Shown here piece by piece: positions 1 to 4,363 of a stretch of DNA of 4,363 bases. The notes under the pieces are model-generated. The model ran no database searches and was not told the DNA's origin. It saw only the letters and a list, made by a program, of their open reading frames with translations. Origin of the DNA: a virus (lineage: Duplodnaviria > Heunggongvirae > Uroviricota > Caudoviricetes). The DNA lies in the IMG/VR virus record IMGVR_UViG_2609459822_000009. One strand, 5' to 3'. Both the position numbers and the translations under genes were made by a program. How positions within the stretch are numbered: position 1 is the first letter of the stretch; the number at the start of each line of letters is the position of its first letter.

Positions 1-11
1 CTACAAAAATA

Positions 12-689
12 ATGTCCATCATTTTTAATGGACACTATCGTATGAAACACCGGACCTGGATCACTGAAGCTTTACGTCTTCACTTTGAAGAACATTTACC
101 CCGGGTTGTGGCCGGGCGTCGCCTGGGTGTACCAAAATCAACAGTTTGTAGTATGTTCGTGCGCTTTCGGAGAGCTGGCCTTTCGTGGCCTTTGCCCGCA
201 GGCATGTCGGAGCAGGAACTTGATGCCTGCCTTTACGGACAATTTTCCACGGTACCAGTCGTACGTCCTGAAAGCACCGTTATATCCGAAGCCCCCGTGG
301 TAAAAAAACGTCCCCGGCGGCCCAACTTCCCTTATGAGTTTAAAATCGCCTTAGTGGAGCAGTCACTGCAGCCCGGAGCCTGTGTGGCGCAGATCGCCCG
401 GGAAAACGGAATCAACGATAACCTGCTCTTCAACTGGCGCCATCAATACCGGAAAGGTGGCCTGCTGCCTTCCGGAAAAAATATGCCGGCACTGCTTCCC
501 GTGACGTTAACGCCGGAGCCGGATAATAAAATCCCGGCCCCCGCACAGGAACCAGAGCGGATAAATACACCGTCCGACAGTCTGTGTTGTGAGCTGGTTC
601 TGCCGGCCGGAACTCTCAGGCTTAAAGGTAAACTGACGCCGGCGTTATTACAGACACTTATCCGCGAAATAAAAGGGAGCAGCCACTGA
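12..689 (+). CDS. tnpA: IS66-family accessory protein TnpA (orf1), helix-turn-helix protein; start uncertain and frame is open to the window edge
   Basis: 225-codon frame. The C-terminal ~130 aa (KKRPRRPNFPYEFKIALVEQSLQPGACVAQIARENGINDNLLFNWRHQY ... ELVLPAGTLRLKGKLTPALLQTLIREIKG) has the layout I recall for IS66 Orf1: an HTH followed by a conserved C-terminal motif. The N-terminal ~95 aa holds a second HTH-like segment (AGRRLGVPKSTVCSMFVRFRRAG). No Shine-Dalgarno precedes ATG 12 or ATG 42, and there is no in-frame stop between position 3 and 12, so the true start may be 42, 204 or upstream of the window. Stop TGA at 687-689. Confidence 0.8.
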   Translation: MSIIFNGHYRMKHRTWITEALRLHFEEHLPRVVAGRRLGVPKSTVCSMFVRFRRAGLSWPLPAGMSEQELDACLYGQFSTVPVVRPESTVISEAPVVKKRPRRPNFPYEFKIALVEQSLQPGACVAQIARENGINDNLLFNWRHQYRKGGLLPSGKNMPALLPVTLTPEPDNKIPAPAQEPERINTPSDSLCCELVLPAGTLRLKGKLTPALLQTLIREIKGSSH

Positions 690-1036
690 TGATATCTCTC
701 CCTGCAGGTTCGCGTATCTGGCTGGTTGCAGGTATCACCGATATGCGAAATGGCTTTAACGGCCTGGCATCAAAAGTTCAGAACGTCCTGAAGGATGACC
801 CGTTCTCCGGACACCTGTTCATCTTCCGCGGACGCCGGGGTGACCAGATAAAAGTGTTGTGGGCTGACAGTGACGGACTGTGCCTCTTCACCAAACGCCT
901 GGAGCGGGGCCGCTTCGTCTGGCCAGTCACCCGTGACGGCAAGGTGCACCTTACTCCGGCTCAGTTATCCATGCTTCTTGAAGGTATCAACTGGAAGCAC
1001 CCGAAACGAACGGAACGCGCTGGAATCCGCATATAA
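689..1036 (+). CDS. tnpB: IS66-family accessory protein TnpB (orf2)
   Basis: 115-aa ORF whose ATG (689-691) overlaps the tnpA stop (TGATG), as is typical for IS66 orf1/orf2. The protein (MISLPAGSRIWLVAGITDMRNGFNGLASKVQ ... FIFRGRRGDQIKVLWADSDGLCLFTKRLE) matches the conserved IS66 Orf2 signature as I recall it. Stop TAA 1034-1036. Confidence 0.9.
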   Translation: MISLPAGSRIWLVAGITDMRNGFNGLASKVQNVLKDDPFSGHLFIFRGRRGDQIKVLWADSDGLCLFTKRLERGRFVWPVTRDGKVHLTPAQLSMLLEGINWKHPKRTERAGIRI

Positions 1037-1055
1037 CCCGTTGTAAAGTGAGGAT

Positions 1056-2627
1056 ATGGACACCTCACTTGCTCATGAGAACGCCCGCCTGCGGGCACTG
1101 TTGCAGACGCAACAGGACACCATCCGCCAGATGGCTGAATACAACCGCCTGCTCTCACAGCGGGTGGCGGCTTATGCTTCCGAAATCAACCGGCTGAAGG
1201 CGCTGGTTGCGAAACTGCAACGTATGCAGTTCGGTAAAAGCTCAGAAAAACTTCGTGCAAAAACCGAACGGCAGATACAGGAAGCACAGGAGCGAATCAG
1301 CGCACTTCAGGAAGAAATGGCGGAAACGCTGGGTGAGCAATATGACCCGGTACTGCCATCCGCCCTGCGCCAGTCTTCAGCCCGTAAACCGTTACCGGCC
1401 TCACTTCCCCGTGAAACCCGGGTTATCCGGCCGGAAGAGGAATGCTGTCCTGCCTGTGGTGGTGAACTCAGTTCTCTGGGATGTGATGTGTCAGAGCAAC
1501 TGGAGCTTATCAGCAGCGCCTTTAAGGTTATCGAAACACAACGTCCGAAACAGGCCTGTTGCCGGTGCGACCATATCGTGCAGGCACCAGTACCTTCAAA
1601 ACCCATTGCACGCAGTTATGCCGGAGCGGGGCTTCTGGCCCATGTTGTCACCGGGAAATATGCAGACCATCTGCCGTTATACCGCCAGTCAGAAATATAC
1701 CGTCGTCAGGGAGTGGAGCTGAGCCGTGCCACACTGGGGCGCTGGACAGGTGCTGTTGCTGAACTGCTGGAGCCGCTGTATGACGTCCTGCGCCAGTATG
1801 TGCTGATGCCCGGTAAAGTCCATGCTGATGATATCCCCGTCCCGGTCCAGGAGCCGGGCAGCGGTAAAACCCGGACAGCCCGGCTGTGGGTCTACGTCCG
1901 TGATGACCGTAACGCCGGTTCACAGATGCCCCCGGCGGTCTGGTTCGCGTACAGTCCGGACCGGAAAGGTATCCATCCACAAAATCACCTGGCCGGTTAC
2001 AGCGGTGTGCTTCAGGCCGATGCTTACGGTGGTTACCGGGCGTTATACGAATCCGGCAGAATAACGGAAGCCGCGTGTATGGCTCATGCCCGGAGAAAAA
2101 TCCACGATGTGCATGCAAGAGCGCCCACCTACATCACCACGGAAGCCCTGCAGCGTATCGGTGAACTGTATGCCATCGAGGCAGAGGTCCGGGGCTGTTC
2201 AGCAGAACAGCGTCTGGCGGCAAGAAAAGCCAGAGCCGCGCCACTGATGCAGTCACTGTATGACTGGATACAGCAACAGATGAAAACACTGTCGCGTCAC
2301 TCAGATACGGCAAAAGCGTTCGCATACCTGCTGAAACAGTGGGATGCACTGAACGTGTACTGCAGTAATGGCTGGGTGGAAATCGACAACAACATCGCAG
2401 AGAACGCCTTACGGGGAGTGGCCGTAGGCCGGAAAAACTGGATGTTCGCGGGTTCCGACAGCGGTGGTGAACATGCGGCGGTGTTGTACTCGCTGATCGG
2501 CACATGCCGTCTGAACAATGTGGAGCCAGAAAAGTGGCTGCGTTACGTCATTGAACATATCCAGGACTGGCCGGCAAACCGGGTACGCGATCTGTTGCCC
2601 TGGAAAGTTGATCTGAGCTCTCAGTAA
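1056..2627 (+). CDS. tnpC: IS66-family DDE transposase TnpC (orf3)
   Basis: 523-aa ORF with the expected IS66 transposase architecture. N-terminal coiled-coil/leucine-zipper-like region (aa ~8-95). Cys cluster C130, C131, C134, C143 ... C168, C169, C171 (zinc-finger-like). Candidate catalytic residues in VHADD (D258/D259, nt 1827-1832), LQADAYGGY (D322, nt 2019-2021) and NNIAENALR (E449, nt 2400-2402). GTGAGGA lies just upstream of the ATG, though the spacing is short. Stop TAA 2625-2627. Confidence 0.93.
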
Positions 2628-2637
2628 ATATCAATAC

Positions 2638-2657
2638 GGTTCTGACGAGTCGCTTAC
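2638..2657. repeat. Right terminal inverted repeat of the IS66-family element (inner boundary approximate)
   Basis: GGTTCTGACGAGTCGCTTAC ends in the reverse complement of GTAAGCG. It lies between the tnpC stop (2627) and the point where phage U coding sequence resumes (2658). The repeat length cannot be fixed without the left end, which is outside the window. Confidence 0.6.
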
Positions 2658-2951
2658 GATTTTCCGGCAGTTGCCGTTTATCTCACCGGCGCTGAATACA
2701 CGGGCGAAGAGCTGGACAGCGATACCTGGCAGGCGGAGCTGCATATCGAAGTTTTCCTGCCTGCTCAGGTGCCGGATTCAGAGCTGGATGCGTGGATGGA
2801 GTCCCGGATTTATCCGGTGATGAGCGATATCCCGGCACTGTCAGATTTGATCACCAGTATGGTGGCCAGCGGCTATGACTACCGGCGCGACGATGATGCG
2901 GGCCTGTGGAGTTCAGCCGATCTGACTTATGTCATTACCTATGAAATGTGA
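2658..2951 (+). pseudogene. U: Lambda-like tail terminator (minor tail protein U) gene, 3' fragment only; interrupted by the IS66-family insertion
   Basis: From 2658 the frame reads [97 protein letters not shown] and stops at TGA 2949-2951. I recognise this as residues ~35-131 of phage lambda gpU. The 5' ~34 codons are absent from the window and replaced by IS sequence. The ORF-track entry 2769..2951 is only the part after the first internal Met. Confidence 0.85.
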
Positions 2952-2958
2952 GGACGCT

Positions 2959-3699
2959 ATGCCTGTACCAAATCCTACAATGCCGGTGAAAGGTGCCGGG
3001 ACCACCCTGTGGGTTTATAAGGGGAGCGGTGACCCTTATGCGAATCCGCTTTCAGACGTTGACTGGTCGCGTCTGGCTAAAGTTAAAGACCTGACGCCCG
3101 GCGAACTGACCGCTGAGTCCTATGACGACAGCTATCTCGATGATGAAGATGCAGACTGGACTGCGACCGGGCAGGGGCAGAAATCTGCCGGAGATACCAG
3201 CTTCACGCTGGCGTGGATGCCCGGAGAGCAGGGGCAGCAGGCGCTGCTGGCGTGGTTTAATGAAGGTGATACCCGTGCCTATAAAATCCGCTTCCCGAAC
3301 GGCACGGTCGATGTGTTCCGTGGCTGGGTCAGCAGTATCGGTAAGGCGGTGACGGCGAAGGAAGTGATTACCCGCACGGTGAAGATCACCAATGTGGGAC
3401 GTCCGTCGATGGCAGAAGATCGCAGCACGGTGACGGCGACAACCGGCATGACGGTGACACCCGCCAGTGCTTCCGTAGTGAAAGGGCAGAGCACCACGCT
3501 GACCGTGGCATTCCAGCCGGAGGGCGCAACCGACAAGAGCTTCCGTGCGGTGTCTGCGGATAAAACAAAAGCCACCGTGTCGGTCAGTGGTATGACCATC
3601 ACCGTGAAAGGTGTTGCTGCAGGCAAGGTCAACATTCCGGTCGTATCTGGTAATGGTGAGTTTGCTGCGGTTGCAGAAATCAACGTCACCGCCAGTTAA
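2959..3699 (+). CDS. V: Major tail (tube) protein V, lambda gpV-like, with C-terminal Ig-like domain
   Basis: 246-aa ORF beginning [45 protein letters not shown]..., recognised as lambda gpV. GAGG at 2950-2953 sits 5 nt before ATG 2959. The track ORF starts at 2929, but that ATG is inside U and has no RBS. The C-terminal ~90 aa is Thr/Val/Ser-rich with a beta-strand pattern consistent with the known Ig-like domain of gpV. Stop TAA 3697-3699. Confidence 0.93.
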
Positions 3700-3714: not shown

Positions 3715-4137
3715 ATGTTCCTGAAAACCGAATCATTTGAACATAACGGTGTGACCGTCACGCTTTCTGAACTGTCAGCCCTGCAGCGTATTGAGCATCT
3801 CGCCCTGATGAAACGGCAGGCAGAACAGGCGGAGTCAGACAGCAACCGGAAGTTTACTGTGGAAGACGCCATCAGAACCGGCGCGTTTCTGGTGGCGATG
3901 TCCCTGTGGCATAACCATCCGAAGAAGACAAAGCTGCCTTCCATGAATGAAGCCGTTAAACAGATTGAGCAGGAAGTGCTTACCACCTGGCCCACAGAGG
4001 CAATTTCTCATGCTGAAAACGTGGTGTACCGGCTGTCCGGTATGTATGAGTTTGTTGTGAATAATACCCCTGAACAGGCAGAGGACGCCGGGCCTGCAGA
4101 GCCTGTTTCTGCGGGAAAGTGTTCGACGGTGAGCTGA
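3715..4137 (+). CDS. G: Tail assembly chaperone G (lambda gpG-like)
   Basis: 140-aa ORF MFLKTESFEHNGVTVTLSELSALQRIEHLALMKRQAEQAE...PVSAGKCSTVS, recognised as lambda gpG. GGAG at 3703-3706 sits 8 nt before ATG 3715. Contains the slippery heptamer near its 3' end. Stop TGA 4135-4137. Confidence 0.93.
   Translation: MFLKTESFEHNGVTVTLSELSALQRIEHLALMKRQAEQAESDSNRKFTVEDAIRTGAFLVAMSLWHNHPKKTKLPSMNEAVKQIEQEVLTTWPTEAISHAENVVYRLSGMYEFVVNNTPEQAEDAGPAEPVSAGKCSTVS
4113..4119 (+). promoter_or_regulatory. Programmed -1 ribosomal frameshift slippery heptamer G GGA AAG (G to G-T)
   Basis: The heptamer GGGAAAG sits in the G reading frame as G|GGA|AAG (codons GCG GGA AAG at 4111-4119), 18 nt upstream of the G stop. 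This is the position and sequence of the well-characterised lambda G/G-T frameshift site. Confidence 0.85.
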
Positions 4138-4363
4138 GTTTTGCCCTGAAACTGGCGCGTGAGATGGGGCGACCCGACTGGCGCGCCATGCTTGCCGGGA
4201 TGTCATCCACGGAGTATGCCGACTGGCACCGCTTTTACAGTACCCATTATTTTCATGATGTTCTGCTGGATATGCACTTTTCCGGGCTGACGTACACCGT
4301 GCTCAGCCTGTTTTTCAGCGATCCGGATATGCATCCGCTGGATTTCAGTCTGCTGAACCGGCG
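4113..4363 (+). CDS. T: T-frame segment of the G-T tail assembly fusion protein, reached by -1 ribosomal frameshift from G; 3'-partial (runs off window end)
   Basis: The -1 frame from 4113 is open to the window end and reads (GK)VFDGELSFALKLAREMGRPDWRAMLAGMSSTEYADWHRFYSTHYFHDVLLDMHFSGLTYTVLSLFFSDPDMHPLDFSLLNRR, recognised as the T portion of lambda gpG-T. There is no independent start codon or RBS, consistent with expression only by frameshifting. Confidence 0.85.

Follow-up and report, generated by a model that had tools for sequence, protein, structure and literature searches.

ISCro1 adjoins codon 35 of the tail-terminator gene U in a Lambdavirus-type prophage, probably by simple insertion

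Introduction

In the stretch of viral DNA analysed here (4,363 nucleotides, IMG/VR record IMGVR_UViG_2609459822_000009; hereafter the window), the tail-terminator gene U of a lambda-like late operon begins only at its 35th codon, immediately behind the end of an insertion sequence. Has the element transposed into U and split it, with the missing codons lying just beyond its other end, or does its end mark a breakpoint at which upstream phage DNA was lost or moved? And what does the event leave of the phage? U-defective lambda forms tails that are improperly terminated and are not joined to heads, as known from classical genetics. A first-pass annotation of the window had read the locus as a U gene split by an IS66-family element in a prophage that is probably tail-defective. 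We followed up this reading by domain searches, by alignment with intact prophages, and by a survey of related insertions in complete E. coli genomes.

Results and Discussion

Identity and ends of the insertion sequence

The insertion sequence and its parts are as follows.

1–2657, + strand: ISCro1 (IS66 family), corresponding to positions 43–2699 of the 2699-bp element
12–689, + strand: tnpA, IS66 accessory protein of 225 aa (PF01527 HTH_Tnp_1, E = 9e-15)
689–1036, + strand: tnpB, IS66 Orf2-like accessory protein of 115 aa (PF05717 TnpB_IS66, E = 5e-40)
1056–2627, + strand: tnpC, DDE transposase of 523 aa (PF03050 DDE_Tnp_IS66, E = 3e-103)
2632–2657, + strand: right terminal inverted repeat of ISCro1, CAATACGGTTCTGACGAGTCGCTTAC, read from the sequence

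Window positions 1–2657 matched the ISCro1 copy of E. coli RMDEC332 (2699 bp) over the full length with a single base difference (G559A; 1 mismatch in 2657 bases), and ISCro1 copies in several other genomes were 100% identical to them. RefSeq labels the matching copies, including that of RMDEC332, "IS66-like element ISCro1 family". The gene content was that of an IS66 element, with three co-oriented genes in the order tnpA-tnpB-tnpC and a DDE_Tnp_IS66 transposase, which also carried leucine-zipper (LZ), zinc-finger and C-terminal IS66 domains (PF13817, PF13007 and PF13005; Pfam search). The sole difference from RMDEC332 fell in tnpA codon 183 (window position 559), where the window has G for A and encodes R183 in the place of Q. 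This TnpA R183 variant is widespread, the exact protein being present in 775 blocks of the collection.

The window opens at ISCro1 position 43, and the left 42 bases of the element, including its left inverted repeat, lie outside it. The right repeat CAATACGGTTCTGACGAGTCGCTTAC is an imperfect complement of the ISCro1 left end GTAACCGGCTCATTTAAACCGTCTGG, as read in two related loci (L001 and L002). Imperfect terminal repeats beginning GTAA(G/C)CG are expected of ISCro1; the right one is intact in the window, and the left one was seen in related copies only. The right terminus of the element (...GAGTCGCTTAC) is intact, with its last base at position 2657. In 17 other ISCro1 copies, 8-bp target duplications define the ends of the element, and all of these copies have the same last base.

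The U fragment and the downstream tail genes

Phage DNA begins with the next base, and the remaining features of the window are as follows.

2658–2665, + strand: GATTTTCC, the 8 bases adjoining the IS right end, predicted right-hand target-site duplication (17 of 17 related insertions have an 8-bp duplication)
2658–2951, + strand: 3' fragment of the tail-terminator gene U, codons 35–131 and stop (lambda gpU identity, Pfam)
2959–3699, + strand: V, major tail tube protein of 246 aa, intact (PF16461, E = 1e-70, plus Big_2)
3715–4137, + strand: G, tail assembly chaperone of 140 aa, intact (PF06894, E = 1e-59)
4113–4363, + strand: G-T -1 frameshift site GGGAAAG (4113–4119), followed by the T frame (from the sequence)

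The 97 residues encoded from position 2658 (coding part 2658–2948, stop 2949–2951) were 100% identical to residues 35–131 of lambda gpU (PDB 1Z1Z and five more entries, E = 4e-61) and matched positions 36–130 of the 130-position Pfam model PF06141 Phage_tail_U. In the intact prophage L006, whose U spans 9598–9993, the first phage base corresponds to position 9700, which is U codon 35. Together with the IS66 domains on the other side of the join, this bore out the earlier view of a U gene broken by an IS66-family element (at codon 34/35), with a 3' fragment adjoining the right end of that element. The earlier count of 97 codons present and 34 missing was correct, the missing peptide that had been guessed (MKHTELRAAVLDALEKHDTGATFFDGRPAVFDEA) agreed with intact alleles, and the comparison with an uninterrupted lambda U that had been called for gave the identity stated above over residues 35–131. 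The fragment also has the place expected of U in the lambda order, upstream of V-G-T.

Translation of 2628–2951 read ISIRF, a stop, RVAY and then DFPAVAVYLTGAEY...VITYEM and the stop of U. In-frame stops precede the fragment at 2625 (TAA, the stop of tnpC) and at 2643 (TGA), and the frame contains no ATG, GTG or TTG before the GTG at 2769, from which only the last 60 residues of gpU would be made. The window therefore encodes no full-length Phage_tail_U domain (about 131 residues) that begins at a start codon of its own. The tnpC gene and the U fragment share one reading frame (window 1056–2951) with two stops between them; because of these stops (TAA 2625 and TGA 2643), a transposase-U fusion is impossible without double readthrough.

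The genes behind the fragment were well preserved. V has its own ribosome-binding site (GAGGA at 2950–2954), and its exact protein occurred in 4166 blocks, with an intact U upstream in all ten places shown. The T frame was free of stops over 4119–4361 and open to the window end, and T is annotated at the corresponding position in the RMDEC332 locus (L001). Over the whole phage side (2658–4363), six intact prophages of other E. coli genomes (L006, L007, L010, L011, L012 and L014) showed 0 differences from the window; identity was 99.8% with the Lambdavirus phage 2G7b, which is viable, and 99.1% with phage 434. Judged by these alignments, it is a genuine, undecayed lambda-type tail module.

Consequences for gpU and particle formation

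In the lambda virion, gpU consists of a five-stranded sheet flanked by two helices. Its O-loop (residues 25–37) docks the head-side stopper gpFII, its E-loop (residues 45–58) contacts gpV, and the protein caps the tail tube and offers the docking surface for gpFII (PMC10721106). The missing residues 1–34 take in beta-strand 1 and most of the O-loop, and a restart at GTG 2769 would also drop beta-strand 2 and the E-loop. Since beta-strand 1 and most of the O-loop are gone and no start codon precedes this GTG, U is non-functional here, and we conclude that the gene has almost certainly been inactivated by the IS. About 70% of the protein would be missing from an upstream U piece, and no functional gpU is expected to be made from this prophage. 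The prophage alone would yield no infectious particles, unless gpU came from another resident lambdoid prophage or U were repaired by recombination or excision. The earlier statement that it is tail-defective unless U is complemented in trans is a sound inference from the virion structure (PMC10721106) and classical lambda genetics.

The reservation about complementation is a real one. If a second lambdoid prophage in the same cell supplied gpU, the insertion would have no effect on phage production, and we regard this outcome as unlikely, though with some weight. The U-V segment was found in 5151 places in 3535 complete genomes, and a single genome had as many as 7; in OZ039559, two copies (L011 and L012) match the window exactly, and SEC470/H10407 has two lambda-like modules. 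In O157 Sakai, prophages with morphogenetic defects are complemented by others resident in the same cell (PMC2669165). However, the median was one U-V module per genome having any, and progeny made with borrowed gpU would still carry the defective U.

In SEC470/ETEC H10407 (L035 and L037; NZ_CP007594 at 1314217 and 5103170), each of the two lambda-like prophages has been struck by ISCro1, one in E and the other in U, and each could in principle complement the defect of the other.

For annotation, the fragment is best labelled a pseudogene of U, and predictions of inducibility or transfer should take the prophage as probably unable to produce particles autonomously. Beyond annotation, the locus matters little.

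Expression of the late genes behind the insertion

Two opposite effects of the element on the downstream late genes had been proposed, namely polarity and transcription from an outward-reading IS promoter. Neither found support in consensus scans of the whole window: nothing resembling a terminator was detected on the + strand, and neither strand showed a sigma-70-like promoter, the IS right end included. Q-modified RNA polymerase reads through terminators along the whole late operon. V, G and T retain translation signals of their own and should still be expressed from a Q-antiterminated transcript passing through the co-oriented IS. With no terminator-like site on the + strand, the V ribosome-binding site retained, the IS co-oriented and Q-dependent read-through, little polarity is to be expected. 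A search of the window against Rfam gave no RNA family match.

Evidence that U was split rather than truncated

We put the probability at about 0.85 that ISCro1 transposed by simple insertion into U of a Lambdavirus-type prophage of E. coli or a close relative. The element, co-oriented with the late operon, would have inserted between U codons 34 and 37 and probably duplicated GATTTTCC, which in the intact allele stands between ...GATGAGGCG and GGCAG.... The 5' part of U would then adjoin the left end of the IS, a little beyond the edge of the window. Such an insertion predicts ...GATGAGGCGGATTTTCC directly before the IS left end and a left junction in which ...TTTGATGAGGCGGATTTTCC is joined to GTAACCGGCTCATTTAAACC. 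The upstream piece of U would encode residues 1–37 and then stop at the TAA within the IS terminus GTAACC.

The fate of other ISCro1 copies was the main evidence for this reading. Our query for the base rate consisted of the IS and downstream phage DNA only, and the copies that it found were therefore not selected on upstream content. With this query, ISCro1 was located within about 2.7 kb of a U-V-G-T segment in 51 complete genomes, co-oriented in 29 and reversed in 22. Among complete E. coli genomes, 17 copies that lie within the genes E to H of a lambda-like prophage were examined. A perfect 8-bp duplication was present in every case (17/17), and for all 17 both target halves were present and the empty site could be reconstructed and aligned to an intact prophage. 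Three of the 17 lay in U (O103:H2 strain 129, SEC470/H10407 and NMBU_W05E18), and one was a tandem IS dimer. By analogy with these copies, a U gene split by insertion with both halves kept is the likely reading of the window.

An IS-associated deletion or rearrangement would explain the same right-hand join, and we consider it improbable. The IS right end would then be a breakpoint, and the first 34 codons of U, possibly together with Z and the head genes, would be gone or displaced, through recombination of one ISCro1 copy with another or through adjacent deletion, and the element would be a truncated prophage remnant. The window, which starts at IS position 43, is compatible with such an event. 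ISCro1 is multi-copy, genomes matched by an IS-internal probe having 2 matching places at the median and 33 at most, and decayed lambdoid prophages of strain 300709 have undergone heavy deletion. Two further ISCro1 copies were found in heavily decayed prophages; one was a simple insertion, whereas that of ATCC 43896 lay between lysis genes and a partial tail-fibre assembly gene, and its 8-bp flanks did not match. Against a deletion, the 17/17 copies in E to H that kept both target halves and a perfect duplication form a set unselected on the upstream side, and the phage side of the window is without decay, as its 0 differences from intact prophages indicate.

An assembly artefact, that is, a collapsed IS repeat joined to the wrong flank with no real ISCro1 in U, is very improbable: the window does begin inside the IS, as contigs broken in repeats often do, and two other U-fragment entries are adapter chimeras (contig L003; proteins P0126 and P0164), but the join falls exactly at the IS terminal base without adapter or foreign bases, a U gene that runs from codon 35 right after an IS terminus demands an IS end there whichever IS body is attached, and the same element is truly inserted at 15 other sites of the module in closed genomes.

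The public "truncated U" entries just mentioned (L003 positions 1–98, P0126 and P0164) have a Nextera or TruSeq adapter fused to U. They translate as ...RSEEHTSELQ or ...LSLIHISEPTRP and represent no biological truncation.

The junctions of the simple insertion were also sought directly. A megablast search with the 200-bp junction gave no single-piece match in 5426 complete E. coli genomes. Exact scans of GTDB species representatives, JGI metagenomes and IMG/VR returned 0 matches to the right junction GAGTCGCTTACGATTTTCCGGCAG and 0 to the predicted left junction GGCGGATTTTCCGTAACCGGCTCA (...GGCGGATTTTCC joined to GTAACCGGCTCA), and the phage collection contained no match to the junction. At the protein level, an exact look-up of the 60-residue remnant started at GTG found three short contigs, and the two that were read were an adapter chimera and an N-gapped scaffold. 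The U junction was absent from the ten places shown among the 775 blocks with TnpA R183. The partial U proteins matched by a 40-residue query (eight sequences fetched) included no called 37-residue product (MKHT...DEADFP), and the shortest among the best 120 matches to full-length U had 104 residues. As regards the claim of a split U, the right junction at codon 35 is plain in the window and the split is likely by the 17/17 analogy; neither this junction nor the predicted left one was found in any collection searched.

The exact site (L006 position 9700, target GATTTTCC) was met nowhere else, and the insertion is a new allele of a known kind of event. Both the IS and the phage side agree completely or almost completely with other copies, which suggests an evolutionarily recent event.

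Comparable insertions in U and other late genes

ISCro1 disruption of a lambda-like U is a known kind of event, belonging to ordinary prophage decay, and other strains have such insertions at many positions nearby. RefSeq annotates gpU pseudogenes split by ISCro1 in H10407/SEC470 and in O103:H2 strain 129. In ETEC H10407/SEC470 (NC_017633 / NZ_CP007594, ~5103069–5106171), the same 2699-bp IS lies in gpU of a lambda-like prophage with a perfect 8-bp duplication, and the two halves carry the RefSeq label "gpU phage tail terminator protein, incomplete". This insertion differs from that of the window in its site, at about codon 90 (L006 position 9867) instead of codon 35, and in the opposite orientation of the IS. 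The copy of O103:H2 strain 129 (NZ_AP038976) is closer, being in the same gene and orientation only 39 bp downstream of the site of the window (L006 9739 as against 9700), with both U halves and the duplication TACACGGG; unlike the window, it consists of two head-to-tail ISCro1 copies (5392 bp). In NMBU_W05E18, ISCro1 lies in U near codon 112.

In the strain 129 dimer (L002 positions 709–6100, inside U), the right end ...CGCTTAC is joined directly to GGCTCATTT. The second copy is without the first six left-end bases (GTAACC), which gives a total of 5392 instead of 5398 bp. The dimer could be a transposition intermediate with abutted ends or a product of recombination.

Two further cases bear comparison. 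The U amber mutants of lambda resemble the window in the loss of the tail terminator, but they are point mutations in a lytic laboratory phage, whereas here a 2.7-kb element parts Z from V. In the "defective prophage pool" of O157 Sakai, IS insertions have inactivated single late genes of lambdoid prophages, for example nu1 of Sp4 (PMC2669165); these cases concern another gene and other prophages.

Distribution of ISCro1 targets in the lambda late module

The 17 mapped insertions occupied 15 distinct sites. The target GTTTGATC near the start of E (L006 7237–7244) was used in SEC470 (+ orientation, L035) and in TUM12368 (- orientation, L041), and the target GCATCAAC at the 3' end of Z (L006 9571–9578) in RMDEC332 (+ orientation, L001) and in strain 21310 (- orientation, L039); both 8-bp targets were thus occupied in both orientations, in unrelated strains. 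This reuse of 8-bp targets suggests that ISCro1 has a target-site preference. Nine of the 17 insertions, or ten with that of the window, fell within about 540 bp (L006 9571–10111: the end of Z, U and the first 37 codons of V) of the roughly 7 kb sampled.

That ISCro1 insertion is non-random and has preferred targets in the lambda head-tail late module is, taken as a whole, a doubtful proposition at present. If it were true, ISCro1 would be a recurrent, semi-specific disabler of Lambdavirus prophages in E. coli, and the window one more instance. ISCro1 was observed near the module 51 times against about 13 expected under a crude uniform model (about 9900 chromosomal IS66-like places and 5151 modules of about 7 kb). 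Clonality and selection against insertions elsewhere confound this comparison, which is only suggestive, and a strong hotspot claim is for the same reasons unproven. An orientation bias of ISCro1 in the module was rejected, the records being divided into 29 co-oriented and 22 oppositely oriented ones.

In complete E. coli genomes, about 1% of U-V places (51 records versus 5151 places) had ISCro1 within about 2.7 kb of U-V-G-T. This frequency and the reuse of targets bear on the contribution of IS to prophage domestication.
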